From: Candidatus Marinamargulisbacteria bacterium | Lineage (GTDB): Bacteria > Margulisbacteria > Marinamargulisbacteria > UBA817 | Length of the DNA stretch: 64,000 bases | Reading direction: 5' to 3' | Assembly: GCA_023262965.1 (NCBI GenBank) | Contig: JALQXX010000003.1 | Coordinates: forward strand, 3,996 to 67,995 | Part shown: piece by piece, positions 30,324-55,952 of the stretch | Layout: every line of letters begins with the position of its first letter | Numbering within the stretch: the stretch's first letter is position 1 | Made by a program: the position numbers and the translations under genes | Notes under the pieces: generated by a model | The model's database searches: none | What the model saw: the letters and a program-made list of their open reading frames with translations, nothing else | Told to the model about the DNA's origin: nothing

Positions 30324-30334
30324 TTAAATATACC

Positions 30335-33496: not shown

Positions 33497-33500
33497 AGTA

Positions 33501-38097: not shown

Positions 38098-40972
38098 GTG
38101 GGGTTTCCTTCCAAACAGATCGTTTTATTTTTGCCAAATAAACAGTTCGAGGTTTTGTATTGAGTTCATTTTGTAGTAAATCGTAACGACGTTTGCTGGA
38201 TCGAGCAGCCTGTAATGGATGATTTTTTTGATTGATATCGCCAAATACAATCGCATTGGTAGGACAGCTTTGCTGACAGGCTGTTTGAAGCCCATCAATA
38301 GGCGTGCCGTGCAATTTCTTTTGCAATTTTGCATGACTAATACGCTGAATACAATACGTACATTTTTCCATAACCCCTCGCATACGAATGGTTACTTCTG
38401 GGTTGAATTGTTTTTGTGTTGGTGCCGATGGCTCACGAAAATAATCGAACAAATGAATACGCTTTTTTTCAACCGATTGGGGATTCTTTTGATGCCAATC
38501 AAAAAAATTAAATCGACGCACTTTGTAAGGGCAATTATTGGCACAGTATCGCGTACCAATACAGCGATTGTATGTCATTACATTCAGACCTTCATCATCG
38601 TGAACCGTTGCATTTACCGGACACACCTGTTCGCAGGGGGCATTTTCACAATGAACACAGGCCACTGGCATATAATTAATGGTAACATCATTGTGGTCAT
38701 TTTCTATAAAATACCGATCAATACGTATCCAACTCATTTCACGCCCTTTAATGACCTCATCCTTGCCCACAATAGGAATATTGTTTTCGGCTTGACAAGC
38801 AACCGCGCATGTATGGCAACCGATACAAGCGTTTAAATCAATAGACATGCCCCACTGATGCTCACCTGTATATACTTGTTCTTTAAAGAGGGAATGAATA
38901 TGATGGTCATCATGATGAGCATGATCCAATTCAGCGATTGTTTTAATATGAAGAATATTCTTAATACGATCTTTAATCCCCGATGCCGCCAACGACTCTT
39001 CATCCAATCCATGATTCATTTGGGTATCGGCTAAGGTTACATGCTCATTTGTTTTAGATACCGATTGAATGGGATAATGCCCATACGGATCTAATCCATC
39101 GGTAGAAATACCGTAACCGGAAAACGTGGTCTGGTAAATAGCCCCATACCCATAATTGATGGAAATAGTTGCACGGTTTTGACCTGGCAAAATGATAACG
39201 GGTCCTTTTAATCGTGCATCAGCAACATCAATGGTTACAACATCACCGGTTACAAGATGATTTTTTTTGGCAAAATCCGTATTAATAATAAATGCGTTGC
39301 CCCAGGTTAATTTTGTAATGGGGTCGGGGGTTTCATGCAACCAGGCATTATTGGCATAACGTCCATCAAGCATGTAGTACGATGGCGACACAGTTAGGGT
39401 TAAATCATTGCGTATGGTTTCTGATGCAGAAAAAGCGATGGGGGCTTTATTGATACGTAGGGATGCTAGAGATTTGCCCACAATAAATCCTTTTGATTTT
39501 AGTTGATCAAAAGATTGATTATATGATTTGAGCAACGTCTGCACCTGTTGATAAACGGTGAACGATGACCCCACCAAAGCCGTTAAAACATCGGCATGTG
39601 AGAGCACATCGGGATACAACGGTTCAATGACAGGCTGTTGAATGCATATATGATTATGATCGCTTTTGAGTAATCCCCACTCTTCTAAAAAGTGAGTTCC
39701 AGCAATATGTATGGCAGAAAATGCGCTAAGGGCATTTCGATAATTACACACATTAATAATTAATGCATTGCCAACTACATCCGAAAAATTGGGCATGAAT
39801 CGTGGCAAATCAACTCCAAAAGAAATCACCGTTTTAATACGGTTGGTTTGAAACACGGTGCGAATTGCATCAATGGTATCATTAAATGGTTGGATCGTAG
39901 CCGATGAATCGGAATAGGGTTTAATATGAACTGTGCTGCCGTTGTTTTTTAAGACGGTATTAATAGCCAGGGCCAGTGCGTGATAAACGGATTCAAAGGC
40001 CGCTCCCACCATAACAATTGCCGCTGATTTATGAGACAGTAATGAATCAACTAACGGATTTAATTGATTGGTATCCACCATGGTTGTGTCGACATTAATA
40101 GTCTTTAAGATGGCTTTGTCAATTTCGGTGCCATATTGAGTAATAACACGATGGGCTAATGCTTTAATAAATTCACGTTGATGTGAAGGAGATTGATTTA
40201 TAATACGATCTGCTTTTGAATCCGTCATCGATAAATGACTTGAAACGGATACATGCATTATATCAGATTGATGGGTCATGTACGACTGAAGTGATGCAAT
40301 GTTCTCAGACTCGAGCCCTAAAAAATCGGATTCAAAATTAAGAATGAATTTTGTTTTTTTGAAATTGTAATGTAAAAATCCCCGTTGTCCCGTAAAGTGA
40401 TAAATGGCATTGTTTTGATTTCCATTCATCAATGGATCGACAATAAACACATGGGATTTTTTTACAGATTTTAAAAGTGATTCAATAACCATTGAGTGGT
40501 GATTGGGCAACACTAATAACGTACTGTCATCCAACGATATATTGCCCAGCACATTTTTTATGGTTAATACATTGGCATAGTCACCATTTAATGTATGTGT
40601 TTTAAGGCGATCGGGATCATATAGTTGCTGAATTTCGGCCTGAATATGAGCCGATGAACGACCGTTATTTTCAGGGTAATCGGGATGACCATCTAATTTG
40701 GTTGGACGTCCTTCATAGGTTGTGGCCAATAAACTGTTAACACGATTATTAATAACGGCACTGGTTGCATAATAGTTGGGCAATCCAGGAACGGTTGTTG
40801 TTGATTCATGGGTATACGTTTTAATAATTTGTTTGGGTTTCCGTATGGATACACATCCCGATAACGCCGCCACGGTCATTCCCGTAGATAGGGATTTCAT
40901 AGCCTCGCGACGCGTTTTAGGCGACGAGAACAACGTTGTTTTAAATTCACTTTTATTATCTATCGATGACAT
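38084..40972 (-). CDS. actB: ACIII subunit ActB (molybdopterin-oxidoreductase-like domain fused to a 4Fe-4S ferredoxin domain, with Tat signal)
   Basis: N-terminal twin-arginine motif [11 protein letters not shown]; 962 aa with multiple CxxCxxC...CP cluster motifs in the C-terminal third. Confidence 0.85.
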
Positions 40973-41610
40973 ACACTACAAGCCTCTCCGGGGTTCACAT
41001 TATACGTTTCTTTTAACTGAAGCCCCAATTTTAATTGATTATCTGGTCTAAAATCCAAGTTAGTGACCTGTTCTTTAGGCCATAAATATTTCTCAGGTTC
41101 CCGATGACACTCTAAGCACCACCCCATACTTAATGGTTTCGCTTGATATACAGTGGTCATTTTATTCACATTTCCGTGACATTGAACACACGATACACCG
41201 GAATTAACATGAGCGGCATGGTTAAAATAAACATAATCGGGAAGCATATGGACTTTAACCCAATCAATGGGTTTTTTCTGATTATGATACTCGGTTAATG
41301 TTTTGATTGCGGGGGAGTCAACTTTAATGGTTTTATGGCAATTCATACAGGTCTCGGTTGTAGGAATATTGGAATGACCCGATACCTCGACATTGGAGTG
41401 ACAGTACCGGCAATCCATTCCAACTTGATTGACATGGAGTTCATGAGAAAACGGAATGGGTTGCTTGGGCTGATACCCCACTTCTAAATGTTTGGGAGAA
41501 AACCAAAACCAAAACAAATGAATGGTTATTCCCAAAATAAGTGTAAGACCAACTAAAACAATAATTGGGAGATAATTAAACCATTTTGGGAATAACTGCT
41601 TACTGGTCAT
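40960..41610 (-). CDS. actA: ACIII pentaheme cytochrome c subunit ActA
   Basis: Five CxxCH motifs (CRYCH, CMNCH, CVQCH, CLECH, CSVCH) and an N-terminal TM anchor. Confidence 0.85.
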   Translation of the reverse strand: MTSKQLFPKWFNYLPIIVLVGLTLILGITIHLFWFWFSPKHLEVGYQPKQPIPFSHELHVNQVGMDCRYCHSNVEVSGHSNIPTTETCMNCHKTIKVDSPAIKTLTEYHNQKKPIDWVKVHMLPDYVYFNHAAHVNSGVSCVQCHGNVNKMTTVYQAKPLSMGWCLECHREPEKYLWPKEQVTNLDFRPDNQLKLGLQLKETYNVNPGEACSVCHR

Positions 41611-41611
41611 C

Positions 41612-43936
41612 TTAAAACAATACTACGCCATATTTTAAAATTAGACCAACAAAAACAACGGACACAATGGTCATCAGTTTTAATAAGATATTTAAAGATG
41701 GCCCCGCCGTGTCCTTGAATGGATCGCCAACCGTATCACCAATAACGGCAGCTTTGTGGGCATTGGTACCTTTTCCACCATGCGCACCTTTTTCAATATA
41801 TTTTTTAGCGTTATCCCAAGCCCCTCCCGAATTATTGAGCATAATGGCCAACGAAAAACCGGTTGCAACACCCCCAATTAATAGCCCCAATACACCAGCG
41901 ACACTTAATACAAACCCTGTCACAATCGGGACTAAGATGGCGAGTAGGGATGGTAAGATCATTTCTTTTTGAGCCCCAATGGTGGCAATTTCCACACATT
42001 TTGCATATTCAGGGGTTCCCTTACCGTCCAAAATACCTGGAATCTCACGAAATTGACGACGAACTTCTTCGACCATTTTCCCTGCCGCGCGACCAACCGC
42101 CAATATGGTTAATGCACAAAAAACAAATGCGGTCATGGCACCAATAAAAAGACCAATTAAAAATTTTGGATTAATGGCATTGATATGGAATATGTCAATC
42201 AATTTCAACATATCCAAATGCGGAATATAAAATATGTTTTTGGATTCGTTTACTAATTGCTCAATATTTGTGAACCCAATAGCGCCTATTCGATGAATGC
42301 CATCAAGAGCAATACGACCCAGCCATATTTTAATGGAATCAATATAGGCTGCAATAAGAGCCAATGCGGTTAATGCAGCTGATCCAATCGCAAACCCTTT
42401 CCCGGTAGCGGCGGTTGTATTGCCTAAAGAATCCAAGGCATCGGTACGTTCACGGACGGATGGATCAAGGCCAGACATTTCCGCGTTTCCACCCGCATTA
42501 TCCGCAATGGGCCCAAAAGCGTCTGTAGCCAATGTGATTCCCAAGGTAGAGAGCATTCCAATAGCGGCAAATGCAATACCATAAATACCACTAACAATCG
42601 ACTGGGATCCGCCAGAAAACAAAAAGGCGGCAATAATACCAATGGATATAATAATAACCGTAATTCCGGTAGATAACATTCCCACAGAAATACCTTGAAT
42701 AATGGTTGTTGCGCCGCCCATAACCGAGCTGTCCGCAATGGATCGTGTGGGACCATAGTGGTCAGACGTGTAATATTCGGTGACTTGGCCAATGAGGACC
42801 CCTGAAACAAGTCCCGCAGTTACGGCACCAAATACACCCCAAGAAATAAAGTCAATGTAGGCCAAAAAAGCAATAAACACCAATGTGAGTGCAGCGGATA
42901 TGTTGGTACCACGATGCAATGAACCCAACAAGCTTTTTTGATCAGCGCCCTCATTCGTTTTTACTGTGAAAATTCCGAGGATGGAAAAAATAATTCCGCC
43001 ACCGGCTACAATCATAGGGGATAAAATGGGGCGAATATCCACACCAAATTGATGGGCATTGGCTAGCATTAATGTAGCCCCAAGCGATGCGCAGGCCAAA
43101 ATAGACCCACAATACGATTCGTATAAATCGGCGCCCATACCGGCTACATCCCCAACATTGTCACCAACATTATCCGCAATGGTTGCCGGATTTCGAGGGT
43201 CATCTTCAGGAATGCCCGCTTCAACTTTTCCCACCAAATCGGCCCCCACGTCGGCGGCTTTGGTGAATATACCGCCACCAACACGGGAAAACAACGCCAT
43301 AATAGACGCTCCCATACCATAAGGTAAGAGAGATGTGGTTAACTCATTAAATTTATATGCTTGAAAGGCATCTAGGGATATCAAACTAGAGGACCAGTAG
43401 GTGGCCCCAATACTCTTCAAAAATCCATTTGAAATACCCAGTATATTGTGATCAAAAAATACATTTAAAAGAAAAAACCATACGGAGATATCCAGAAGAC
43501 CAAATCCAACAACAACCAACCCCATAATGGCACCGGCACGAAATGATACACGCAATCCGCTATTTAGGGATGTTTGACAGGCATTCGCTGTACGGGCACT
43601 GGCATTGGTAGCCGTTTTCATGCCTAAATAACCACATACCCCAGACCACAATCCACCACTCAAAAATATGAAGGGCACAAATGCATTTTGAATGCCAAGA
43701 GCGGCCATTCCCAATAGCAAAACAAAAATGACGCCAAACACATAAATTATAATTTTGTATTGGCGGTTTAGGTAGGCCATGGCGCCTTCTCTAACATATT
43801 GGGCAATCTCTTTCATACGCGGGGTCCCCTCACTTTCGCGGGATACACCAATGTAAAATAACCGGGCGGTAATTAAAGCAACCACAGCAGCGAGTGGCGC
43901 AAGATACCAAAGTAATGGGATAATGTTCATTTTCAA
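41612..43936 (-). CDS. hppA: Membrane-bound proton-translocating pyrophosphatase
   Basis: GDNVGDNVGDVAGMGADL and DNAGG motifs; 774 aa with ~16 TM segments. Confidence 0.95.
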   Translation of the reverse strand: MKMNIIPLLWYLAPLAAVVALITARLFYIGVSRESEGTPRMKEIAQYVREGAMAYLNRQYKIIIYVFGVIFVLLLGMAALGIQNAFVPFIFLSGGLWSGVCGYLGMKTATNASARTANACQTSLNSGLRVSFRAGAIMGLVVVGFGLLDISVWFFLLNVFFDHNILGISNGFLKSIGATYWSSSLISLDAFQAYKFNELTTSLLPYGMGASIMALFSRVGGGIFTKAADVGADLVGKVEAGIPEDDPRNPATIADNVGDNVGDVAGMGADLYESYCGSILACASLGATLMLANAHQFGVDIRPILSPMIVAGGGIIFSILGIFTVKTNEGADQKSLLGSLHRGTNISAALTLVFIAFLAYIDFISWGVFGAVTAGLVSGVLIGQVTEYYTSDHYGPTRSIADSSVMGGATTIIQGISVGMLSTGITVIIISIGIIAAFLFSGGSQSIVSGIYGIAFAAIGMLSTLGITLATDAFGPIADNAGGNAEMSGLDPSVRERTDALDSLGNTTAATGKGFAIGSAALTALALIAAYIDSIKIWLGRIALDGIHRIGAIGFTNIEQLVNESKNIFYIPHLDMLKLIDIFHINAINPKFLIGLFIGAMTAFVFCALTILAVGRAAGKMVEEVRRQFREIPGILDGKGTPEYAKCVEIATIGAQKEMILPSLLAILVPIVTGFVLSVAGVLGLLIGGVATGFSLAIMLNNSGGAWDNAKKYIEKGAHGGKGTNAHKAAVIGDTVGDPFKDTAGPSLNILLKLMTIVSVVFVGLILKYGVVLF

Positions 43937-44885: not shown

Positions 44886-46136
44886 TTGGGCGGTATAGCA
44901 TCAGGAAATTTATCAGGGGGCAGGTTACCAATATGGCCCAGCGGTAAAAACCCGGCCAATACGTCATCATTGAAAGGGGTTGATGAGGCGTTTTCACTGA
45001 ACCGAAATGTATCAAACGATGCGATTTCGGGCAAAAATGTTGGCAAGGCAGCCTCAGTGGATTCCCCCAATGCAGAGCCCGCGTCGGCGGTTGCGCCCAA
45101 GATTTCCACACAAATAAAACAATTAACCCCCAAAGATATTATTCAGCAACTTGCAAAAATGAATATTCCTGTCACAGATCACAACCATGACATTGCGTTA
45201 TTAATGGCAGCTTATGGGGTTGAAATTTCGGAGGATAGTTTTGACCTAGTGAATAAATTATTAAAAGGCGATAAAAGTGCTTTGGGTAAAAAAAATGCGG
45301 TGTTATTGGTGTCCAAGGGGTTGGGCAATGCGGTGGATAGTGCGGGGATTTTGAATGCATTTTTTGAATCCAATAAAGCCGTATCGGAACAGTTGAAAGG
45401 GCTTTTGAGTCGGCATTCGCAAATGGCAAGCCTCTTGCAACAATCGCTGGCGGATTTTCCGGAGTTGAGCTCGTTTTTGACTATATTTGATGATTTTAAT
45501 CAGCAATTAAAACGAATGAATACGGCGGATAAAACAAACCCGTTGCTGGTGGATCGAGATGGGTTTTTAACAGATATTCAAGCCATGTCTGGGTTTTTAA
45601 AGGGGCTTATTCAAAACAACACATTGTCATCATCCGAATGGCGTGCGTATTTGAACGGATTGGATATCATTGCCAATTATGTTGCGTCCCAAAAAATATT
45701 GAGCCAGCCGTCGGTAAAGCAACCCTTGGGCTTATTAGAATCATATGATTATTTTCAAATTCCAAACCCATTGGCGGCGTCGGTGATGATTGATATTTTG
45801 CGCCGTAAACAAACAACAAAAGATATTAAGGATGCGAAATCCAACAACCCATCCGCGCAAGAAAAAATTATTGTTAGTATGGATTCAGACGTGTTGGGGC
45901 GTGTGACGGTTATTGTAACCATTATGGGAATTAATATATGGTGTTTGGTGTATGCGGATAATGATCATACGGTATATCATTCCAATGCGTTTCGGCAGGA
46001 ATTGATAAAAAAATTGGCGGAGCACGATTATCGATTAAGTGAATTTAAAACGGTGCGAAAAAAAGTGGATATTCAAAAGTTTATTGCGCCATCTCAAAAT
46101 TTATCGGATGTTAAACGGATTCAGACGGAAATATGA
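44886..46136 (+). CDS. fliK: FliK-like flagellar hook-length control protein (divergent)
   Basis: The C-terminal region LGRVTVIVTIMGINIWCLVYADNDHTVYHSNAFRQELIKKLAEH fits the Flg_hook (FliK C-terminal) pattern. It is followed by an flhB C-terminal-domain gene, as in many FliK-YlqH pairs. Confidence 0.5.
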   Translation: MGGIASGNLSGGRLPIWPSGKNPANTSSLKGVDEAFSLNRNVSNDAISGKNVGKAASVDSPNAEPASAVAPKISTQIKQLTPKDIIQQLAKMNIPVTDHNHDIALLMAAYGVEISEDSFDLVNKLLKGDKSALGKKNAVLLVSKGLGNAVDSAGILNAFFESNKAVSEQLKGLLSRHSQMASLLQQSLADFPELSSFLTIFDDFNQQLKRMNTADKTNPLLVDRDGFLTDIQAMSGFLKGLIQNNTLSSSEWRAYLNGLDIIANYVASQKILSQPSVKQPLGLLESYDYFQIPNPLAASVMIDILRRKQTTKDIKDAKSNNPSAQEKIIVSMDSDVLGRVTVIVTIMGINIWCLVYADNDHTVYHSNAFRQELIKKLAEHDYRLSEFKTVRKKVDIQKFIAPSQNLSDVKRIQTEI

Positions 46137-46528
46137 GTCTTAGTCGCAAAAAAAAGATTTTAGAAAAGCGTGCATCTCTAGAAAAAAAAATTAAGCGGCG
46201 CATACACGATTTGTCTCATGATGATCAAAGCAGTTTGCAAGCTGTTGCGATTAAATACGATAAATCATCATCAAAAGCCCCCACCATTGTGGCAAGTGGC
46301 CGTGGTAAAATCGCCACTCAAATTCTAGAATTGGCCGAAGAAAATAATGTGCCAATGGTGGAAGATCCGGCCTTGTCAAAATTGCTTTCATCTCTTAAAA
46401 TTAAAAGCGAGGTGCCACCGAACCTATTTAAAGTAATCGCTGAAATTTTGGCGTTTATTTTTTATCTGGATCGAATGGCAAAGGCAAAAAAAGGTATTCG
46501 CTCAACCTTTAAGCGGTTAAAAAAATGA
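46133..46528 (+). CDS. FlhB C-terminal-domain protein (YlqH/EscU-like)
   Basis: EENNVPMVEDPALSKLLSSLKIKSEVPPNLFKVIAEILAFIF matches the FlhB/YscU cytoplasmic-domain consensus (VP.VE...LAR.L...IP.ELY.AVAEIL). Confidence 0.75.
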   Translation: MSLSRKKKILEKRASLEKKIKRRIHDLSHDDQSSLQAVAIKYDKSSSKAPTIVASGRGKIATQILELAEENNVPMVEDPALSKLLSSLKIKSEVPPNLFKVIAEILAFIFYLDRMAKAKKGIRSTFKRLKK

Positions 46529-47325
46529 TGAAGCATGTATTTTTATGGATGATGGTAATAGCGCAATGGGGGCTTGGAGCAGAGCAGAATCCAATGTCTT
46601 TTGAGGAATATGATGATATTGTGAATCCTGTAATGAAATTAAATGCAACATCGATGGGTGGGTTTATGGATGCCATGAAATCCTACATTGTGTATACCGC
46701 CATACAGCATTTGCCAGGAGCTAAGGAATCGGGGGTGGGGTATTACTATGACAATCAGACACGGGGTATGAAACGGGTTCTATTTTATCGGTTATCGGAA
46801 GGGTACCCGCGTGAAACCAATAAGCCCCTTGATTTTTACATCGAAGGCAAAGGTTTTTTTGTTATTGAGTTGCCCGGCGGGTGGCCAGCCTACACACAAG
46901 ATGGCCGGTTTGAACGGGATGAGATGGGGCGGTTGGTGACCTTTGAAGAGCATTTTCCTGTCTTGGGTGAAAATGGGCCTATTTACGTGGCGAATGGTGG
47001 CATTAATGTGTCAAAAGATGGTGTTATTTATCAGAATGATCAGGTTGTGGATGTGTTTCGGGTTGAATGGCCACGGCGGAAGCATGATTTAAAGTCGTTC
47101 AACCATAAAATATTTTATTTTTCAAAAGAAGACTGGGAAAACCCCGATAAAATTATGCCGGCAGACGTCAAAATCTTGCAGGGGTATGTTGCTGATTCGT
47201 CGATTACCAAAGGGTATATTGGATTGGTGCCTGAGTGGAAAAATGGGCACGAAGCCAATGTTAAAGTGGTGAAGGCGTATTTGAAGAATATGTCGTTGGC
47301 GGTTCAGGCGGCAAATCCGCAATAA
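46525..47325 (+). CDS. Atypical FlgF-like rod-family protein with signal-peptide-like N-terminus
   Basis: The core DGRFERDEMGRLVTFEEHFPVLGENGPIYVANGGINVSKDGVIY resembles the FlgF/FlgG central region. The canonical N-terminal ANNLAN motif is absent. The N-terminus MMKHVFLWMMVIAQWGLGA is hydrophobic. Confidence 0.4.
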   Translation: MMKHVFLWMMVIAQWGLGAEQNPMSFEEYDDIVNPVMKLNATSMGGFMDAMKSYIVYTAIQHLPGAKESGVGYYYDNQTRGMKRVLFYRLSEGYPRETNKPLDFYIEGKGFFVIELPGGWPAYTQDGRFERDEMGRLVTFEEHFPVLGENGPIYVANGGINVSKDGVIYQNDQVVDVFRVEWPRRKHDLKSFNHKIFYFSKEDWENPDKIMPADVKILQGYVADSSITKGYIGLVPEWKNGHEANVKVVKAYLKNMSLAVQAANPQ

Positions 47326-47343
47326 AAATACTAAGGAGGAAAC

Positions 47344-48150
47344 ATGTTTCAACAATTTAATATTTCACGATCAGGGTTTGGTACGTATCAGAAAATGATG
47401 TTTAACATTACCAATAATATTGCCAACGCTCAGACCCCTGGGTATAAACAAACTCGGGTGGAATTGGCGACCTTATTTCCCATTATTCTTCAAGAAGCGG
47501 AGATGGATTATGCGGAAGACGACAATATGAATCCGTACATTAAAAAGAAGCGTGGCATTGAATTGGGAACAGGGGTTCGTATTGAATCCATTTCTACCGA
47601 TTTTTCCGAAGGGAATTTACAGGTAACGAATAATGAGTTGGACTGGGCTATTCGTGGGAATGGATTCTTTCAGTTGCGGCGTCCGGATGGTGATATCGTA
47701 TATTCTCGTTCGGGAAATTTTACGCGTGATGTATACGGTAATATTGTCACTCAGTCCGGGTATTCGCTGGATCCGCCCATTCGGTTGCCCGATAACACAA
47801 CCCAGTTAACGGTTGATGCGGAAGGTCGTGTTTTTGCGTCCGTTAATAACGATGCCGTCCCCCGAGAAATTGGGCAATTATTATTGTCACGATTTTCAAA
47901 TCCAGGGGGATTAAAAAATATTGGTAATAATTTTTATAAAGAAACAACGGCTTCTGGGGAGCCCATTGTGGAAATTCCTGGTCGAAATGCAACGGGGCAA
48001 GTTGTGCAGTTTTCCATTGAGAATTCCAATGTGGATATTATTAAAGAAATGATGGAAATGATTATGACGCAAAAAGGGTTGGAGTTGCTGGGTAAGGCAA
48101 TGCAAGCTGGTGAGCAAATGCTGAAAGCGGGTATGGGGATGACCTCATAA
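47344..48150 (+). CDS. flgG: Flagellar basal-body rod protein FlgG
   Basis: N-terminal NITNNIANAQTPGYK and C-terminal SNVDIIKEMMEMIMTQKGLE...AGEQML rod signatures; 268 aa. Confidence 0.85.
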   Translation: MFQQFNISRSGFGTYQKMMFNITNNIANAQTPGYKQTRVELATLFPIILQEAEMDYAEDDNMNPYIKKKRGIELGTGVRIESISTDFSEGNLQVTNNELDWAIRGNGFFQLRRPDGDIVYSRSGNFTRDVYGNIVTQSGYSLDPPIRLPDNTTQLTVDAEGRVFASVNNDAVPREIGQLLLSRFSNPGGLKNIGNNFYKETTASGEPIVEIPGRNATGQVVQFSIENSNVDIIKEMMEMIMTQKGLELLGKAMQAGEQMLKAGMGMTS

Positions 48151-48188
48151 TTGCGTGGTTTTTCTGCGCTTGGATACTGCTTGCTCCG

Positions 48189-48836
48189 ATGGTTTTGGCG
48201 GAAACCATGCCCTGTGATGGGATTGATGATGTCATGACAGAGGCCTTGGCCAATCACATTCGGGAAAATTATCCGAAGGTTGAGATCGCGGGATTAACCG
48301 TGAATCGCCGTGATTCCAGCGCCTTACCTGCGTGTACGCAGGTGTCTGTGACCATGCCAATGCGCGTCCGGTTTGCCGTGGATACGGTTGTGAAGTTGGA
48401 TGCCTACAACGGGGATCATTTTGTTGGACGGTCAACCCGGTTGTATTATTTTTCTGGATCCGCAAAAGGGATTGCCCTGACGCATGCCATGTCGCGTGGC
48501 GATGTTATTGATGAATCGGATATGGATGCGGTGTTGATTCCATTGGATCAGGTGAATACGGCAACCATTAGTCATATTGATCCGGGTATGTTTCAGTTAC
48601 GAAGCAATGGGTTGAAGGGGCGTGTTTTGGATGACTGGTCAATTGAACCCCGATTTGATGTTGCAAAAGGGCAGTCGGTGCGTGTTATTGTCCATAAACA
48701 GCCGGTGACCTTGACGGTAAAGGGGTCTGTTTTAGACAATGGTCGTATTGGCCGTACCATTCGGGTGGCATTAAATGATAAAATACTGGTAGGAACACTG
48801 CATGATAAAAATACTGTTTACATTGATCATTTATAG
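48189..48836 (+). CDS. flgA: Flagellar P-ring assembly chaperone FlgA
   Basis: C-terminal SAF-domain pattern KGQSVRVIVHKQPVTLTVKGSVLDNGRIGRTIRV. The start is uncertain, because an in-frame upstream extension would supply a signal peptide. Confidence 0.7.
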   Translation: MVLAETMPCDGIDDVMTEALANHIRENYPKVEIAGLTVNRRDSSALPACTQVSVTMPMRVRFAVDTVVKLDAYNGDHFVGRSTRLYYFSGSAKGIALTHAMSRGDVIDESDMDAVLIPLDQVNTATISHIDPGMFQLRSNGLKGRVLDDWSIEPRFDVAKGQSVRVIVHKQPVTLTVKGSVLDNGRIGRTIRVALNDKILVGTLHDKNTVYIDHL

Positions 48837-49410
48837 TTTTGTATTTCATGGAATGATGGCGGATTCCTTATGGACAAAATCTCAAACGCGTTCTGTTTTT
48901 GATAATCAGCGGTCATTTTCTGTGGGGGATTTGGTGACGGTTCGAATATCGGCGGAGTCTACAGCGGTTCAAGAGGCTGGAACAACGACGCGAAAATCCT
49001 CAAATATTAATGCCAATTTCTTTGATACCTTTGATCAATATTCATTAAATGCCAACGCGAATGATTCGCTTAGAAAGATGCAAAATTATCGTCTGGGTGG
49101 AAATGACAGTTATTCAGGCGTGGGGCAAACCACACGAAAAAGTAAAGTAGAGGCCATTGTTTCGTGTACCGTTACCCGTGTGCTACCAAATGGTCATTTG
49201 GTTATTAATGGTGAGCGATTGGTGGATGTCAACAATGATTCAGAAATTATACAGATTTCAGGGATTGTTCGGCCGAATGATATTTCAGCCGCCAATTCGG
49301 TCGAATCGCATCAAATTGCACAGTTTGCGATCTCTTTGCGTGGCAAAGGGGTGGTTCATTCGAAACAAACACCTGGATTTTTGTCGAATTTTTTTAATTG
49401 GGTTTTTTGA
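48802..49410 (+). CDS. flgH: Flagellar L-ring protein FlgH
   Basis: Signal peptide plus LVTVRISAESTAVQEAG...NGHLVINGERLVDVNNDSEIIQISGIVRPNDI. Confidence 0.85.
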   Translation: MIKILFTLIIYSFVFHGMMADSLWTKSQTRSVFDNQRSFSVGDLVTVRISAESTAVQEAGTTTRKSSNINANFFDTFDQYSLNANANDSLRKMQNYRLGGNDSYSGVGQTTRKSKVEAIVSCTVTRVLPNGHLVINGERLVDVNNDSEIIQISGIVRPNDISAANSVESHQIAQFAISLRGKGVVHSKQTPGFLSNFFNWVF

Positions 49411-50486
49411 TGAAGCGAATTATTTTAGGATTAATTATGGGGATAAGTCTAGTGGGGTATGGTGCGACTACCGTAAAAATTCGCGATATTTCCCGGGTGG
49501 TGGAATCCAGAGACAATCAATTGTTTGGGTATGGGCTGGTGGTTGGGTTACGCAATACAGGGGATACTCAGCGATCGGTTTTTACCGAAAAAGCCCTCAC
49601 GAATTTACTGAAGAAAATGGGGATTAGTCCGGATCAACGAGACTTTAAATCGCGTAATGTGGCGTCGGTTATGGTAACGATGAATTTGCCACCGTATGCC
49701 CGGCCTGGTCAAAAGATTGATGTGAACGTATCGTCTTTAGGGGATGCAACAAGTTTGGCGGGGGGGACCTTGCTAATGACGCCATTGCAGGGGCCCGATT
49801 TTGAAACATATGCGGTGGCTCAAGGCCAAGTTATTGTAGGGGGGATATCAGAGAAATCCAGTAAAGTGAGCTACTATATGAATCAAACAACGTCCGGTCG
49901 TGTACCCAATGGGGCTATTGTTGAAAAAGAGGTGGCGGTGACGCGTGATGATCAATTAAATATTATACTGGTATTAAATGATCCCAATTTCACCATGTCG
50001 TCTAAAGTTGTTAAAGCACTTAAGGCCAATGGATTTAAGCAGGTTATGGCGTTGGATGCCGCATCGATTCAAATTCCACTAAACAACATACCCGATATGG
50101 CATATGTGGATATTATTCATAAAATTGAATCCATTGAAGTAGCACCTGAGTCCAGCTCTAGAGTGGTTATTAATGCGAAATCGGGGGTCGTTGTTATTGG
50201 GGAAAATGTGCGGTTGCTTCCGGTTGCGATTACGCATGGGGGCGTCTCGATTAAAATTACGGATAGTTCTAGCACTACGGATTATGGCGGTAGTTCCGGA
50301 ATAGGGGGGCAGGATATTGAGGTATCTGAAGATAAAACAACGGTTCATTTTGTAAATCCGGATAATTCATTATCCAGCTTGGTGGATGCATTGAATAAAA
50401 TAGGGGTCAAAACGAAGGATCTTATTTCTATTTTACAAGCCATGGAAGAGGCGGGTGCATTGGTGGCCACCATTGATGTTATTTAA
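49398..50486 (+). CDS. flgI: Flagellar P-ring protein FlgI
   Basis: Signal peptide, then RIRDISRV...NQLFGYGLVVGLRNTGD. Confidence 0.9.
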   Translation: MGFLMKRIILGLIMGISLVGYGATTVKIRDISRVVESRDNQLFGYGLVVGLRNTGDTQRSVFTEKALTNLLKKMGISPDQRDFKSRNVASVMVTMNLPPYARPGQKIDVNVSSLGDATSLAGGTLLMTPLQGPDFETYAVAQGQVIVGGISEKSSKVSYYMNQTTSGRVPNGAIVEKEVAVTRDDQLNIILVLNDPNFTMSSKVVKALKANGFKQVMALDAASIQIPLNNIPDMAYVDIIHKIESIEVAPESSSRVVINAKSGVVVIGENVRLLPVAITHGGVSIKITDSSSTTDYGGSSGIGGQDIEVSEDKTTVHFVNPDNSLSSLVDALNKIGVKTKDLISILQAMEEAGALVATIDVI

Positions 50487-50554
50487 TTGTTTTTGGAATT
50501 TACGAGCAGCTCGTTAAAAGGGAGCGTGCTAAAATAGGCAATTTGTGATATTAT

Positions 50555-50887
50555 TTGATAGGCATGACGTGGGTTATTATATTTGGTATTTTGTTGGGCA
50601 ATATGGTTTTTTCCCAAGTGGAAATGAACTATGATATGTTGAATTATATTGCCACCCAAGAGAAAAGTCCGGATAAAGACGATCGCGAAGGGATTAAGCG
50701 TCAATTTCAAACCTATTTTATTAAGACCGTTTTTTTGAATAATGTTTTTAAATCCGACCAGTTGTTTTACGGCGAAACAGACACGAATTATGAAATTATA
50801 AATCAGCTTATGATTAATCAATTTGCTAATAATTTGGCCGACACAAATTTTTTGGACTTGTCGCTGGTGAATTTAGATGACAGATAA
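50555..50887 (+). CDS. Rod-binding (FlgJ N-terminal-like) protein with hydrophobic N-terminus
   Basis: The segment QFQTYFIKTVFLNNVFKSD resembles the FlgJ rod-binding motif (FEAMFLQMMLKSMR). 110 aa. Confidence 0.45.
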   Translation: MIGMTWVIIFGILLGNMVFSQVEMNYDMLNYIATQEKSPDKDDREGIKRQFQTYFIKTVFLNNVFKSDQLFYGETDTNYEIINQLMINQFANNLADTNFLDLSLVNLDDR

Positions 50888-51647
50888 TAACGCAGTTCCT
50901 GAAGGGCAGTCGGTTGATATGCCCAATTATCTTTCGCGAGAACTCTATGTGTCTTCTAAAAATAATTATCATGTTACAGATGAGGAAAAACGTATAGCTG
51001 ATGAACACTTGTATGTTATTGAAGCCATTTCCGCTGTTTTATTTTCAAAAAAAAAGATGCCCCCAACTGTGGATTATAATGATCTGATTAGTGTGGGGTT
51101 TTCGGGTCTTTTAAAAGCAATTCGCGGGTATGACAAATCCAAAAATGTGTTGTTTAAAACGTATGCCAGTATTCGGATTCGAGGTGAAATGCTGGATTTT
51201 ATCCGAAAAGAATGGAAGTCCAAAGCCGCTCACCAGCATCAAACAATGATGAACGGGTTAAAAGAGCGTGTTGCGCATGTGTTTCAAATGCAATTTGATG
51301 GGTCTGAGGCACCGTCTTCCTACAATGTTTTATCTCAACTAACCACATCATACGTCTTGTCTTTGGATGCTGTTATGGACAGTGGCGGCAGTGATCAGGT
51401 GATTGATGGTGCCAATTCTTTTGAAAATACCGTAAACACCGCTGATGAATATCGGTGTTTGAACAATGTTGTGAAGGCATTGGGTCCCAATGAACAGCAA
51501 TTTTTGGATATGTTTTATTGGCAGGGCCTGTCGCAGAAAGAGATTTCAGATCAGTTGCAAATATCCCCAGCAACCGTGAGTCGGATGCATCGTCGGATTA
51601 TTGACCTACTGAAAGAAAAAATGAGCGCGGAGAGTACGAATAAATAA
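50877..51647 (+). CDS. fliA: Flagellar sigma factor (sigma-28, FliA/WhiG family)
   Basis: Sigma-70 region 2 plus the region 4 HTH LSQKEISDQLQISPATVSRMHRRII. It sits within the flagellar cluster. Confidence 0.8.
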   Translation: MTDNNAVPEGQSVDMPNYLSRELYVSSKNNYHVTDEEKRIADEHLYVIEAISAVLFSKKKMPPTVDYNDLISVGFSGLLKAIRGYDKSKNVLFKTYASIRIRGEMLDFIRKEWKSKAAHQHQTMMNGLKERVAHVFQMQFDGSEAPSSYNVLSQLTTSYVLSLDAVMDSGGSDQVIDGANSFENTVNTADEYRCLNNVVKALGPNEQQFLDMFYWQGLSQKEISDQLQISPATVSRMHRRIIDLLKEKMSAESTNK

Positions 51648-51672
51648 TGTCGGGTATGAATAGGAGATTAAT

Positions 51673-52143
51673 GTGAGATATCTAATCATTATGGTTATGG
51701 CCTCTTTTTTGTGTGTCGCTCAGGATGCAAATGCGCCGGCTACTCGTGGCAATACGGCTACCTATGGCAATGCCGCCACCTACGGTGATGCCGCCACCTA
51801 CGGTGATGCCACCACCTACGGTGATGCCACATCATCACTTCTTTACGATCAGACCGCCCTTAATCTTGAAGCCGCAATCTATGATATGAATCGGCGTCAT
51901 AATGCCGTTGCTTATAATATCGCAAATGCCTCTACCCCAGGCTTTCGACCCATTCGCTATGATGATGAAATCGCAGAAGCTATTCGACTCTATGGTACCA
52001 CTGAAATGCTCAATGATGTGAATGTGGATGATGAGATGGTTAAGTCTACTAAAATTCGTTTGAAACATAGTGCCTATATTCGGCTACTGACCACCAAAAT
52101 AGGGATTACCAAAAAGGTGGTGACGTTAGGCAAGGGTGCCTAA
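51673..52143 (+). CDS. flgB: Flagellar basal-body rod protein FlgB with ~50-aa N-terminal extension (hydrophobic segment plus 6-aa tandem repeats)
   Basis: The core LLYDQTALNLEAAIYDMNRRHNAVAYNIANASTPGF matches FlgB. The GTG start 51673 is supported by RBS TAGGAG with a 6-nt spacer. No alternative in-frame start lies downstream of the repeats. Confidence 0.75.
   Translation: MRYLIIMVMASFLCVAQDANAPATRGNTATYGNAATYGDAATYGDATTYGDATSSLLYDQTALNLEAAIYDMNRRHNAVAYNIANASTPGFRPIRYDDEIAEAIRLYGTTEMLNDVNVDDEMVKSTKIRLKHSAYIRLLTTKIGITKKVVTLGKGA
51744..51815 (+). repeat. 4 x 18-nt in-frame tandem repeat (gccgccacctacggtgat-like) encoding (A/T)ATYG(N/D) inside flgB
   Basis: Seen directly in the sequence. The four units differ by 1-3 nt. 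Confidence 0.7.
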
Positions 52144-52267
52144 CCTAGCGGGTGGGATTTTTCGAATATCTGCGTTAAGTGTGGTCCTCCGATCCTCATT
52201 TACTAAAGTAAACTCCGGTTCTCACACCACACTGTGCCTTGATCTTCAAAAAATCCCACCCGCTAGG
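52144..52267. repeat. 124-bp nested palindrome immediately after the flgB stop
   Basis: A perfect 19-bp inverted repeat: CCTAGCGGGTGGGATTTTT (52144-52162) and AAAAATCCCACCCGCTAGG (52249-52267). An inner 7-bp inverted repeat: AGTGTGG (52178-52184) and CCACACT (52227-52233). A central TTTAC-taaa-GTAAA hairpin at ~52200-52214. Confidence 0.7.
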
Positions 52268-52285
52268 GACTTGCACTCGTATACC

Positions 52286-52500
52286 TCCTCGTTTACTAAC
52301 GTAAACTCGGAGCCCCTTCTACAGTCGCTTTCCTCGTTTACTAGCGTAAACTTGGCGTCCTTCCTACAGTCGCTTTCCTCGTTTACTAGCGTAAACTTGG
52401 CGTCCTTTCTACAGTCGCTTTCCTCGTTTACTAACGTAAACTTGGAGTCCTTTCTACAGTCGCTTTCCTCGTTTACTAGCGTAAACTTGGCGTCCTTTTT
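52286..52500. repeat. Tandem array of 4.7 x 45-bp direct repeats, each containing the GTTTAC-TARC-GTAAAC hairpin
   Basis: Units begin at 52286, 52331, 52376, 52421 and 52466 (partial). The consensus is TCCTCGTTTACTARCGTAAACTTGGMGTCCTTYCTACAGTCGCTTT, with 1-4 mismatches per unit. There are no spacers between units. Confidence 0.8.
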
Positions 52501-52766
52501 GCACCCATTTGCCGCGTTTAATCCCCCAAACGTTGCTTTATTTTTCTGCTTCGGACTGATTGCGTTTTTTTTGGTGGATTTGAGTTTTATTCAAAATGAA
52601 CCTTTTCAAACCTTGGTTTATTTTGTACAATCAAATGGTATGATGAGCGGATTTCTTCAATGGTTTCAAACTGTTGTCACATCGTGTAGCCCTGTTGCAA
52701 AAAAAATTAAAACCTATTTATTGGATTGCTTTAGCCCACCCCTATCCCACTTTGGATCCCTAGCCT

Positions 52767-53213
52767 ATGATTTTTAAAATTAGTGTTTTGCTTCTTGCTC
52801 TTTTTGTATACGCTTTCCCCCAAAAAAGTGGCGCTATCGATGCCCTTAATCTATCCGGTAATGGTATGCTCGTTCAAAAATACCGCCTTCGTATTATTGC
52901 CGAAAATATCGCCAATGTCTCCACTCATATGACCGATCGCGGTGAACCCTATCGTAAAAAATACGTTATGGTTGTCCCCGATAAACACGGCGTTCGCGCC
53001 GCTGGTATCATGGAATCCAATGCCCCCTTCGGCCAAATATTGGACCCAGGTCATGTCTTCGCCGATCAACATGGGATTCTCCGTACACCAAATTTTGAAC
53101 TTAATGACGAAATGGTTAATCTCTCTTACTCAAACCTACTCTATGAAGCCAATACCACCGCATTTAAATCGTCACGACAAATGTTTCAAAATACCCTCGA
53201 GCTCCTTAAATGA
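52767..53213 (+). CDS. flgC: Flagellar basal-body rod protein FlgC with hydrophobic N-terminal extension
   Basis: IDALNLSGNGMLVQKYRLRIIAENIANVST matches the FlgC N-terminal motif. The C-terminus LYEANTTAFKSSRQMFQNTLELLK is typical. It is preceded by (M)IFKISVLLLALFVYAFPQKSGA. The only in-frame alternative start (TTG 52788) still leaves the hydrophobic segment. Confidence 0.8.
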   Translation: MIFKISVLLLALFVYAFPQKSGAIDALNLSGNGMLVQKYRLRIIAENIANVSTHMTDRGEPYRKKYVMVVPDKHGVRAAGIMESNAPFGQILDPGHVFADQHGILRTPNFELNDEMVNLSYSNLLYEANTTAFKSSRQMFQNTLELLK

Positions 53214-53713
53214 TCCAGAACCTACCCATACACTCCCCTGTAAATGCCCTCCAAAAAATAAACCCCGCTCACGCCCTTAATCCCGAACTCGTCAATGAAT
53301 TTAATGCCGTCTTTAAAGAAGCCGCTGCCGCTATTGTCCATACATCTGAAAATAATGATAAAAAACAGGGCAAAATACCCCACGATACCATCTCCCTCCA
53401 TAATGTCGATCGCCATTACCTCGCCCAACAAGTGAATGCCGGTGTCGTTAATGCCGCCACACAGGCCGATCCCAAATCGCTGAATATTGTCCCCCTTCAA
53501 ATATTCCTCGATAATGCTATTCGATCCCTCGAACGCGTCAGCCAACAAGAAATTCGTGCCAATACGCTCATGAATGAATTTATTAAAGGCAATGTCTCCG
53601 AGGATGAAGTCGTACTCGAAACAGCCAAATTGAATCTCGCCATCTCCATGGTCACCACCATTGTCCAATCAACCGTTCAAACGTTTAAAGAAATACAACA
53701 GATCCCAGTTTAG
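53210..53713 (+). CDS. fliE: Flagellar hook-basal body protein FliE (long form)
   Basis: The C-terminal region EDEVVLETAKLNLAISMVTTIVQSTVQTFKEIQQIPV matches the FliE consensus. 167 aa is longer than typical. Confidence 0.7.
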   Translation: MIQNLPIHSPVNALQKINPAHALNPELVNEFNAVFKEAAAAIVHTSENNDKKQGKIPHDTISLHNVDRHYLAQQVNAGVVNAATQADPKSLNIVPLQIFLDNAIRSLERVSQQEIRANTLMNEFIKGNVSEDEVVLETAKLNLAISMVTTIVQSTVQTFKEIQQIPV

Positions 53714-53728
53714 GTGTAATATAAAAAA

Positions 53729-55459
53729 ATGGCAGAAGATAATCCCATAGATACCGATTTCGATGACTTAAACCTGGATGATACCATAGCCGATGATCTC
53801 ATGGACCCAATCAATGGGCTGGATGATCTGGACCCTCAGGTAAATCCCTCCCCCAACCAACCCTCCCGCCTTCAACGCACCCTTACCGCCATTCGTACCA
53901 ATCGACGCTATCACGTGATGGCTATTATTCTGATCGGTGTTGCCGTTCTTGCATACGGCGCCTATGGCCTATTTAAAAAAACGCCACCCACACCCCCCAC
54001 CACCAATCAATCCGCTCCCCCAACCTTCGATAGCGCCGCTATTGTCAGTAAAAAAGAGCCCCAAAAGAAAAAACGAAAAATTAAATATGTTGACTTGTAT
54101 CGGCAGCTCGAAAACCGTCAAATAAGCCCTATTTTGCGTGAATTAAGCTACAGAAATATCGCCTACAATATTGTTCAAAATGGAAAGCAATTCGACCTTC
54201 AAGTCGATGAAGATGACCTTGATGAAGCCAAACGAATGCTCGCTATTAAGGGCATGCCTTCCGGCACAACAAAAGGCTATGAAATTTTCGATGAAGCGTC
54301 TAACTTGGGTGTTACCGAATTCGATAAACGGATTCGTCTTATACGCGCCCTGTCCGGTGAAATGGAAAAATCCATTATGGAATTTGATGTGGTTGATTAT
54401 GCCTATGTTGAAATCGTTATACCCGAAACCAAATTGTTCGCCGTCACTCAACCCCCGGTGACCGCTTCCATTCTTATTAAGCGCCGCAACGGGGCCGATA
54501 TCAACGACGAAACCGTCTATGCCATTGTTCAGCTTGTGTCCAATTCGGTCGAAAACCTCCTTCCCGAAAATATTTCTGTTGTGGATACAGAAGGCCGCGT
54601 TCTCTCCATTGGGGTTCTCGATCGTATGCGCCAAAAACAACTCGCCAATGAAAAAAAAGGGCTCGTTACAACCAATACTGCTGGAAACGGACAAGTTATT
54701 ATTCCCGCAATTGAAGACGTTGTGGATTGGTTTCAATTGAAGTTTAATTATGAAACGGTTCTAGAAAAAAAAGCCATTAATCAATTGAATGGGGTATTGC
54801 CAGAGGGGTCCTATAAAGTAGCGGTTACGATTGATTTGAACGCTGTCTCACGTACCGGTGTTCCGGATATTAAAAAAATTGTTACCAGTGTTGTGGTTGA
54901 TGAGCAATTCGATGATGTCGAATTGACAGACGCAATGGCGGAACAAATTACCGATGCGGTTGCGGGCGCCGTTGGCTTTGTTGCTGATCGCGACACCATC
55001 CATATTTCAAAAGCCGCTTTTTTGCAGAAACGCGTGGAGGAGTCCCCAACGGGCGTGGATGCCGTTACTCAAATTAATATTCCCCAATCACATTATAGCG
55101 ATACAATCCAGCGACTATTGGAATTTTGGCCCATTTTTGCCATCGGTGCCGTTATAACAACCATGTTTATTATTGTCGGAAAAATACTAATGCAAATTGG
55201 CCGATATACCGCTCGAATGTATGCTCGTGTACGCGATAAATGGTCGAAGCCCCGCCTGACAAACGCTCCCAGTGAGGAAGGCGGGCCTGATGATGCGAAT
55301 GCCACAGATGCTGGGTCAAATCGTGTGAGCGTGGATGTTATTAATGAATTAAAGGCGAAGGCCAATTTTTCACGCGTTATTCAGTTGAAGGCGATTGCCG
55401 CCCAAGAATTGGAGATATCGGTGAGTGCATTAAAAGAAATGGTGCGAAATAATGGATAA
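53729..55459 (+). CDS. fliF: Flagellar MS-ring protein FliF
   Basis: 576 aa with an N-terminal TM segment, then SGTTKGYEIFDEASNLGVTEFDKRIRLIRALSGEMEKSI (FliF ring-building motif region) and a C-terminal TM segment. Confidence 0.85.
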   Translation: MAEDNPIDTDFDDLNLDDTIADDLMDPINGLDDLDPQVNPSPNQPSRLQRTLTAIRTNRRYHVMAIILIGVAVLAYGAYGLFKKTPPTPPTTNQSAPPTFDSAAIVSKKEPQKKKRKIKYVDLYRQLENRQISPILRELSYRNIAYNIVQNGKQFDLQVDEDDLDEAKRMLAIKGMPSGTTKGYEIFDEASNLGVTEFDKRIRLIRALSGEMEKSIMEFDVVDYAYVEIVIPETKLFAVTQPPVTASILIKRRNGADINDETVYAIVQLVSNSVENLLPENISVVDTEGRVLSIGVLDRMRQKQLANEKKGLVTTNTAGNGQVIIPAIEDVVDWFQLKFNYETVLEKKAINQLNGVLPEGSYKVAVTIDLNAVSRTGVPDIKKIVTSVVVDEQFDDVELTDAMAEQITDAVAGAVGFVADRDTIHISKAAFLQKRVEESPTGVDAVTQINIPQSHYSDTIQRLLEFWPIFAIGAVITTMFIIVGKILMQIGRYTARMYARVRDKWSKPRLTNAPSEEGGPDDANATDAGSNRVSVDVINELKAKANFSRVIQLKAIAAQELEISVSALKEMVRNNG

Positions 55460-55952
55460 TTTGATCCGAGCTAAAATTATTATTGAGCTGTTAGATGATC
55501 GAAAATATACGGTTTTGTCATCGTTTACCGATGTTGAGTTGGAACAGTTAAATGCGATTGATGTAAGCCGTTTGGCCGATCTCTCATCGGTGGATATTGA
55601 TGCGGTTGTGAATGATTTTTTGATGACGGTTAATACCAAGGTGAATCAAAAAAATGCAGAGAATGAGGCCATCACGCACGATACCGATTCGGTAGAGGAG
55701 GTGCCCGATACATTATTTTCTGAACCAGATCCCGTTTTGGGTATTTCCCCCGAGGCTATCGAAGCACTCAGGAATCAACCCATTCAACTACTGGCCTGTG
55801 TGTTGCAGCAATTGCCCAATGATAGGCGCCAGTATGTTGAGGCACAGTTGGGAGACGAAACCCATCGTGCTCTATCGACGGTGGATGTTGTTGAAACGCC
55901 GATGTCGTCACGCGTTGCTCGTATTTTAATGGATCAATTGAACTTGGTATAA
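55452..55952 (+). CDS. fliG: FliG-like protein comprising only N-terminal and partial middle domains
   Basis: RAKIIIELLDDRKYTVLSSFTDVELEQLNAIDVSRLADLSSVDIDAVVNDFL aligns with the FliG N-terminal domain (KAAVLLVALGPEKAAQVMKHLDEETVEQL...VLEEFL). PIQLLACVLQQLPNDRRQYVEAQL aligns with the middle ARM region. The stop comes after 166 aa, whereas full FliG is ~330 aa. Confidence 0.5.
   Translation: MDNLIRAKIIIELLDDRKYTVLSSFTDVELEQLNAIDVSRLADLSSVDIDAVVNDFLMTVNTKVNQKNAENEAITHDTDSVEEVPDTLFSEPDPVLGISPEAIEALRNQPIQLLACVLQQLPNDRRQYVEAQLGDETHRALSTVDVVETPMSSRVARILMDQLNLV

Follow-up and report, generated by a model that had tools for sequence, protein, structure and literature searches.

A central rule for flagella and injectisomes is that every axial component is exported through the type III channel and added at the distal tip; axial proteins polymerise at this growing tip after channel passage. 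In the periplasmic flagella of spirochaetes, the FlaA sheath is exported by the general secretory (Sec) pathway and the FlaB core by type III. These flagella resemble the rod that we propose below in building one substructure from Sec- and type III-exported subunits, but FlaA is non-axial and coats an already assembled filament rather than forming a channel-containing core. FlgH of the L-ring, FlgI of the P-ring and the P-ring chaperone FlgA are cleavable Sec precursors that are put together around the rod in the periplasm; as ring proteins or a chaperone, they do not belong to the axial D0-helix family. Sec-exported peptidoglycan hydrolases, such as SltF and Borrelia BB0259, partner single-domain FlgJ (PMC8517470), and are Sec-delivered helpers in the assembly of a rod that is itself delivered by type III. 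None of FlgH, FlgI, FlgA, FlaA or the FlgJ-partner hydrolases is an axial-family protein. The canonical rod proteins start directly with the D0 helix, have no signal peptide with n-, h- and c-regions (n-h-c), and are exported by type III, for which they carry an FxxxPhi motif together with a short N-terminal hydrophobic signal (PMC8983047, PMC9307174). Here we describe, on computational evidence throughout, a flagellar locus in a 64-kb window (the whole stretch of DNA that was analyzed) from a Candidatus Marinamargulisbacteria genome, in which the rod proteins FlgB and FlgC, a FlgF-like protein and a tentative rod-binding protein encoded by orf110 bear N-terminal segments that resemble cleavable Sec signals.

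The genes lie in a compact basal-body cluster on the + strand, between 44.9 and 56.0 kb of the window, in the order FliK-FlhBc-FlgF-like-FlgG-FlgA-FlgH-FlgI-orf110-sigma-FlgB-FlgC-FliE-FliF-FliG (short), and all open reading frames (ORFs) of the cluster are intact. The flgB-flgC-fliE-fliF and flgF-flgG-flgA-flgH-flgI orders are common to canonical systems, and the window proteins share core sequence, predicted fold and gene order with canonical FlgB, FlgC and FlgF (Salmonella structures 7bin, 7cg0 and 7cgo). Synteny, sequence and predicted fold show that FlgB, FlgC and the FlgF-like protein are single-copy rod proteins. They have the motif, fold and synteny of the rod family and depart from it in lacking a signal-less N-terminus. 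A sequence-only reading of this DNA had drawn attention to hydrophobic N-termini on these three proteins; the ORFs and their N-termini are as it described.

FlgB (156 residues; 51673..52143, + strand) starts at a GTG codon with an AGGAG Shine-Dalgarno sequence 6 nucleotides upstream, and its first 16 codons (51673-51720, + strand) encode the signal-like segment MRYLIIMVMASFLCVA, followed by QD. Alignment to TIGR01396 and to Salmonella FlgB places canonical residue 1 at approximately residue 55-58 and the start of the core at approximately residue 55; position 8 of TIGR01396 falls on FlgB residue 65, and residue 13 of Salmonella FlgB falls on position 36 of the family profile. This anchoring of the canonical start to profiles and structures therefore gives FlgB ~55 extra residues, where about 50 had been estimated from the sequence alone. 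They consist of a signal-like segment of ~16 residues and then ~35 residues of (A/T)TYG(D/N)A repeats, and no ATG, GTG or TTG occurs in frame between codon 13, within the hydrophobic segment, and codon 72, within the conserved core. An 18-bp x4 tandem repeat, in frame within flgB (51747..51830, + strand; Tandem Repeats Finder), encodes the repeat units, which start immediately past the predicted cleavage site. They occur in this genome only, being found in none of 120 FlgB orthologues, and are disordered in the AlphaFold model (predicted local distance difference test, pLDDT, <50). As a matter of fit within the rod, five FlgB N-termini would each bring a repeat extension of ~35 residues.

The rod motif of FlgB, AYNIANASTPGF, matches PF00460 with E=0.0012, just below cutoff, and the protein matches TIGR01396 with E=8e-9, also below cutoff. 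The match of the FlgB family profile to Salmonella FlgB, at 0.008, brings the conserved F/Y of the family motif PIR[FY]xDE[IV] onto Salmonella F45. The AlphaFold model of FlgB (pLDDT 81) has a helix at residues 2-18, a disordered stretch at 19-51 and then the rod helices, and the top 12 Foldseek matches are all proximal-rod chains, with weak E-values of 0.016-0.9.

FlgC (148 residues; 52767..53213, + strand) scores 96 bits against TIGR01395, for which the cutoff is 102. Residues 26-148 align with TIGR01395 positions 3-137, and residues 22-147 with residues 2-150 of a solved FlgC (PDB, 8.6e-18). Canonical residue 1 thus lies at approximately residue 21-24 of the window protein, and these alignments give FlgC ~20-23 extra residues, in agreement with the earlier estimate of about 20. 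The signal-like segment, on the + strand within 52767..53213, covers codons 1-16 to 1-23, reading MIFKISVLLLALFVYA, then FPQKSGA, then IDALN, and the rod motif is AENIANVST. No canonical start codon is present from codon 8 to codon 34, and codon 24 is ATC; the scans of flgB and flgC thereby uphold the claim that neither gene has an in-frame start that would remove the hydrophobic segment. The start of the long form of flgC abuts or overlaps the flgB stop in every orthologous locus, which is the usual operon packing for the long form. The canonical FlgC methionine is replaced by I, N or V in most orthologues. A dual-isoform arrangement, with a second FlgC beginning at the canonical methionine, was considered and rejected, as this methionine is present in just 13 of 67 unique orthologues.

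The FlgF-like rod protein (266 residues; 46525..47325, + strand) contains a PF22692 D1 domain (E=1e-10) and scores 70 bits against TIGR02490 (flgF), below cutoff. Its signal-like segment occupies codons 1-18/19 (46525-46581, + strand) and reads MMKHVFLWMMVIAQWGLG, then A, then EQNP. The sequence-only reading held that the conserved N-terminal motif of this protein had been replaced; the hydrophobic N-terminus is indeed present, but a degenerate rod motif, VMKLNATSMGGF, is retained downstream at residues 36-47 and falls on ANNLANVSTNGF of FlgG in the profile alignment, with KLNATSMGGF of the FlgF-like protein on NLANVSTNGF of FlgG. Over its full length, the family profile aligns with FlgG (2e-36) and FlgF (2e-25) in the PDB. 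In the AlphaFold model (pLDDT 84), residues 2-20 form a helix and residues 21-30 are disordered; an N-terminal helix (35-60) is followed by a beta-rich D1 domain and, at 229-263, by a C-terminal helix, so that both D0 helices are present. The model matches the FlgG and FlgF chains of the Salmonella rod with template modelling (TM) scores of 0.69-0.76 (E=7e-16, Foldseek). An in-frame ATG is found at codon 24; this methionine is not kept in orthologues.

For comparison with the N-termini of these proteins, internal controls were drawn from the window and from nine related loci. FlgB, FlgC and the FlgF-like protein have a median maximal Kyte-Doolittle hydropathy, over 9 residues, of 3.0-3.1, a median h-region of 13-15.5 residues and an n-region with a net charge of +1 to +2. 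The positive controls FlgA, FlgH and FlgI (48144..50486, + strand), which have Pfam matches and signal-like N-termini, give a hydropathy of 2.7-3.2 and an h-region of 16-17 residues; statistically, their N-termini in the window do not differ from those of FlgB, FlgC and the FlgF-like protein. FliK, FlhBc, FliE and the short FliG, with hydropathies of 0.5-1.4, have no hydrophobic segment. Among these, FliE (53210..53713, + strand; PF02049 E=7e-6) reaches a maximum of 1.22, and the FliK-like protein (44886-46136, + strand) and the stand-alone FlhB C-terminal-domain protein (46133-46528, + strand) reach 0.5, all three without a signal-like segment. The distal rod protein FlgG (47344..48150, + strand; TIGR02488, 245.6 bits) provides an internal negative control: it has the canonical N-terminus MFQQFNISRSGFG... 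and no signal-like segment, its sole hydrophobic stretch is internal, and its N-termini are alike in all loci.

In the orthologue sets the segment was called when a stretch of at least 12 residues with a hydropathy of at least 2.0 lay ahead of the core. Aligning the orthologues, as had been suggested for judging conservation of the extensions, recovered the segment in 109/115 FlgB, 70/74 FlgC and 46/50 FlgF-like sequences, the last with likely cleavage between [SAG] and AEHNP. About 95% of more than 230 orthologues therefore carry it, with a length of 16-23 residues ahead of the canonical start, and the exceptions look like fragments or gene calls that begin inside the segment. The hydrophobic region is typically 12-17 residues long, with uncharged stretches of 19-22 residues in a minority of orthologues. 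The linker between segment and core ranges from 0 to ~35 residues, and in the AlphaFold models of FlgB and the FlgF-like protein the N-terminal helix is joined to the rod fold through a low-confidence linker.

Residues around the predicted cleavage sites were tabulated by position after the orthologues had been aligned on the conserved core. The FlgB site (75 unique N-termini) has Pro at -6 (48/75), I/L/V at -3, F/H/Y/N at -2 and C/A/S/G at -1 (81%), and continues with E/Q at +1 and D/N at +2. The FlgF-like site has L/I/V/S/A at -3, F/Y/H at -2 and A/S/G at -1 (93%), followed by the conserved AEHNP. Among the proteins with a segment, predicted mature starts include AEHNP... and EDIVSNVLFDDTSVR.... 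The residues at these sites follow the von Heijne (-3,-1) pattern of signal peptidase I sites. As the simple (-3,-1) rule on its own did not separate the test proteins from cytoplasmic controls, the position-specific tables were used instead, and these show that cleavage-site residues are conserved by position inside segments whose sequence otherwise drifts fast. No twin-arginine motif was found in the n-regions and no lipobox; signals of the twin-arginine translocation (Tat) type and lipoprotein signals were rejected on these grounds. The cysteine of FlgB, where present, is at -1 (A, S or G elsewhere) and comes after F, H or Y, a context unlike that of a lipobox. As judged from sequence, these comparisons show that the segments are real, form part of the translated proteins and have been conserved throughout a deep clade, and that they bear every sequence hallmark of a cleavable Sec signal.

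The product of orf110 (50555..50887, + strand), which occupies the FlgJ position after flgI, is a fourth protein with the same kind of signal-like segment. Its N-terminus reads MIGMTWVIIFGILLGNMVFS, followed by QVEMNY, and the segment is also present in 11 related loci. The protein carries the motif FQTYFIKTVFLNNVFKS, and the family motif, FQTYFIK.VFL..VFKS...NQLMINQFA, is reminiscent of a rod-binding domain. The orf110 family itself has no match in Pfam, NCBIfam or the PDB, and an hhalign comparison with the N-terminal domain of Salmonella FlgJ was insignificant (E=0.016); a homologue lacking the segment, in locus L014, matches the PF10135 Rod-binding domain with E=0.005. We tentatively assign orf110 as a rod-binding or rod-cap protein. 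In the systems with SltF or BB0259 the FlgJ cap is still a type III substrate, whereas here the putative rod-binding protein bears a predicted signal peptide.

A scan of genome contigs with FlgI alone returned no relatives, and one with the FlgB alignment returned six loci. Marine metagenomes and single-cell genomes are the sources of the homologues, which carry the names Candidatus Marinamargulisbacteria or Margulisiibacteriota; the window FlgC and FlgF-like protein have identical copies in NCBI and JGI data. The gene order of the window is also found in L001-L012 and L018, and L018 also has the window's downstream NUDIX-integrase-M50 synteny. The trait characterizes a whole clade and not this genome alone. 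Marinamargulisbacteria have the segment on all four proteins; in L011 and L012, with gene order as in the window, it is on FlgB, FlgC, the FlgF-like and the FlgJ-like protein, and not on FlgG or FliE. In L013 and L018 the segment is on FlgC only, with FlgB lacking it in both and the FlgJ-like protein lacking it in L018, where alone it was seen. The short contigs L014 (FlgB, FlgC and FlgJ-like protein) and L019 (FlgB and FlgJ-like protein) have it on none of the proteins present. From their sequences, L013 and L018 appear to be evolutionary intermediates in which one rod subunit may have changed route. The affected set is coherent, comprising the proximal-rod subunits and the putative cap, with FlgG and FliE never bearing a segment. 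The loci make up a series, from no segment through FlgC alone to all four proteins; this looks like gain by steps, which speaks for the feature being functional.

A profile search of 1.84 billion representative proteins yielded 445 FlgB relatives. The representatives were clustered at 50% identity and the best 150 of the 445 examined: the segment is present in 34, where a median of 57 residues precedes the motif, and missing from 101, where the median is 30; the other 15 are fragments, leaving 135 that could be anchored. The predicted mature start of FlgB, EDIVSNVLFD, compares with MPSIENMIFD in L013 and ...VNEVNVFD in L014, both of which lack the segment. Because the mature start matches the start of these relatives, the FlgB segment would be a precise addition to a full-length canonical protein.

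We infer from these sequence features that FlgB, FlgC, the FlgF-like protein and the orf110 product are exported by Sec, processed by signal peptidase I and incorporated into the rod from the periplasm, and we give this reading a probability of roughly 0.55; Sec routing, cleavage and periplasmic assembly are each part of that inference. The precursors would cross the inner membrane via SecYEG and then be cleaved, leaving FlgB and FlgC with almost exactly the canonical N-terminus and the FlgF-like protein ~6-10 residues shorter ahead of its degenerate rod motif. The mature proteins would be added to the growing proximal rod from its periplasmic side, on the FliE/FliPQR base within the membrane-supramembrane (MS) ring, while FliE, FlgG, FliK and presumably the hook would still travel through the flagellar type III channel. 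Among the routes named by the sequence-only reading (Sec export, membrane anchoring or a lineage-specific export signal), Sec is favoured because the n-h-c architecture is conserved, the h-region is short, the sites have the (-3,-1) pattern with Pro at -6 and the mature ends coincide with canonical N-termini; anchoring is made less likely by the short h-region. Several points weigh against Sec export. No rod, hook or filament protein is known to us to be exported by Sec, and our literature search found no report of rod proteins that are Sec-exported or bear Sec signals; on Marinamargulisbacteria flagella it returned one supplementary note and one KEGG Orthology (KO) table. The FlgC site follows the same tendency as the others more weakly, with G/A at -1 in ~50%. 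Periplasmic subunits would have to be inserted between FliE and FlgG, both delivered by type III. The lineage retains FlhA, FlhB and FliOPQR (PMC6349859), so type III export of these proteins is still feasible, and early type III substrates themselves bear a short hydrophobic N-terminal signal (PMC8983047). Finally, where Salmonella FlgB has F45, the residue through which it docks on FlhB (PMC9307174), FlgB here retains an F/Y-x-x-x-I/V motif. The last point is ambiguous, because F49, the equivalent residue of FlgC, is required for assembly and not for secretion (PMC9307174).

Several of these points feed the main competing explanation, that the segments are an exaggerated, lineage-specific form of the type III hydrophobic signal, or a membrane-targeting device that brings the subunits to the export gate, in both cases with passage through FliPQR/FlhAB. 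Such a signal must sit at least 26 residues upstream of the motif for gate recognition (PMC8983047), a spacing that holds here; the F45 equivalent is kept in FlgB (PMC9307174), and the lineage has genes for the export gate, for a FliK-like ruler and for an FlhB C-domain protein. For a gate signal, however, a positively charged n-region, Pro at -6 and small residues at -3 and -1 are all dispensable, yet here they are conserved; the segments are indistinguishable from those of FlgH, FlgI and FlgA, so that capture by Sec or the signal recognition particle (SRP) would be expected; FlgG, FliE and FliK of the same system do without them; and the linker varies in length from one protein to another. 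We consider this explanation unlikely. Uncleaved signal anchors, which would tether the proteins to the inner membrane as a membrane-proximal scaffold or checkpoint rather than as free rod subunits, would account for the AlphaFold helix of 17-19 residues with its flexible linker and for the longer uncharged stretches in some orthologues. Yet the typical h-region is short for a membrane span (~18-20 residues or more), the Pro at -6 and the small residues at -3 and -1 favour cleavage, and five or six subunits tethered by D0 are hard to square with a rod of canonical fold, which makes anchoring improbable.

It is very improbable that the segments reflect a decaying flagellar relic, wrong starts, frameshifts or assembly errors. 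Frameshifted genes do occur in L001, repeat insertions lie within and after the window flgB, no database protein is identical to the window FlgB, and many flagellar genes went undetected in published tables (PMC6349859). Against this, the same architecture recurs in more than 230 independently assembled orthologues from single-amplified genomes, metagenome-assembled genomes and metagenomes, the window ORFs are intact with strongly conserved cores, downstream start codons are lacking and cleavage-site residues are conserved. The strong FlgB Shine-Dalgarno sequence, the lack of alternative starts, the abutment of flgC on flgB in orthologues and the loss of the canonical FlgC methionine in most of them rule out wrong start codons; the case in which real starts lie downstream, or in which frameshifts explain the extensions, is not borne out. 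The start-codon scans and the conservation among orthologues effectively exclude annotation or assembly artefact and internal initiation.

The spacer between flgB and flgC (52144..52766, 623 bp) is non-coding, rich in repeats and found in this genome only; the two genes abut in all other loci. It contains a 42-nucleotide inverted repeat (52144-52185 / 52226-52267) and a 45-bp x4.7 tandem repeat (52286-52498) with the palindrome GTTTAC-TAGC-GTAAAC in each unit. A mechanically called ORF of 213 residues spanning it (52136-52777) is probably not a gene, and a scan of the spacer for promoters and terminators gave background levels. The contigs of three other assemblies of the same species start within this region.

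The remainder of the cluster contains further components of a flagellar apparatus. The FliK-like protein, identified through PF02120 in its L003 and L012 orthologues, and the FlhB C-terminal-domain protein (TIGR00789 E=6e-24) are both type III-related. The latter corresponds to the part of FlhB downstream of the NPTH cleavage site; its gene is translationally coupled (ATGA) to the FlgF-like gene and adjoins the FliK-like gene in all loci. Between orf110 and flgB lies a gene for a FliA-type sigma factor (50877..51647, + strand; TIGR02479 E=3e-33, below cutoff), and downstream of fliE are FliF (53729-55459, + strand; PF01514 E=8e-48) and a short FliG of 166 residues with N and M domains only (55452-55952, + strand), recognized by aligning the family profile with Aquifex FliG. 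No type III export gate genes are present within the 64-kb window. FlgH of enteric bacteria is a lipoprotein; FlgH here (48802-49410) and in L001-L012 has a site of signal peptidase I type, ..FHGMMA followed by DSLW, and a lipobox cysteine is missing from all of these loci. For flgA, the listed start (ATG at 48189) leaves out the signal peptide that its orthologues have. The frame is open upstream (48144-48189) and encodes LIIAWFFCAWILLAPMVLA followed by ETMPC, with no ATG, GTG or TTG, and the true start is probably a non-canonical codon (CTC, ATA or ATT) near 48144-48152 that overlaps the flgG stop. Elsewhere in the window, a minus-strand cluster at 30000-42000 has a GC content of 0.37-0.40, against 0.44-0.51 in the flanks, and includes a cytochrome oxidase subunit I-like ORF (30954-32537) and an ActB-like ORF of 962 residues (38084-40972). 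This cluster agrees with the published account of an alternative complex III and oxidase acquired laterally by Marinamargulisbacteria (PMC6349859).

The gene content of the lineage can be set beside the published inventory of Matheus Carnevali et al. (2019; PMC6349859), whose Supplementary Data 2 includes the Marinamargulisbacteria genome AA1A, 82% complete. There FlhA, FlhB, FliO/P/Q/R, FliN, FliF, FlgC, FlgF, FlgE, FlgA/H/I and the FlhB-like K04061 are listed as present, FliG is flagged 'check_length', and FliM, FliH, FliJ, FlgD, FlgK, FlgL, FliD, FlgM and FlgN were not detected (PMC6349859). Since FlgB, FliE and FliK were missed there yet are plainly present here, the absences in this table are unreliable for divergent proteins. 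For annotation, this means that standard KO and Pfam models overlook FlgB, FliE and FliK in the Marinamargulisbacteria group. A short FliG of 164-197 residues follows fliF in the window and in L001, L005-L008, L011, L012 and L018; its family profile covers residues 16-186 of the 329 of Aquifex FliG (E=3e-6), and the C-terminal torque-generating domain is absent in every locus examined. With the short FliG, and no FliM, FlgK, FlgL or FliD in the published tables (PMC6349859), the apparatus of this widespread marine lineage may not be a conventional rotary motor. As a tentative and rather doubtful proposal for Marinamargulisbacteria and their relatives, it could be a hybrid-route, flagellum-derived and possibly non-rotating machine spanning the envelope, with a Sec-delivered proximal rod and cap that polymerise from the periplasm and with FliE, FlgG, FliK and the hook delivered by type III.

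If Sec export of the proximal rod is correct, these would be the first axial-family proteins to assemble without passage through the axial channel. Confirmation would make the locus a natural experiment on whether channel passage is mechanistically required for rod assembly, and would show how the order of subunits is enforced without ordered secretion. The lineages in which the predicted signal is on FlgC alone offer a ready evolutionary series, and the short FliG hints that the apparatus serves a function other than swimming.

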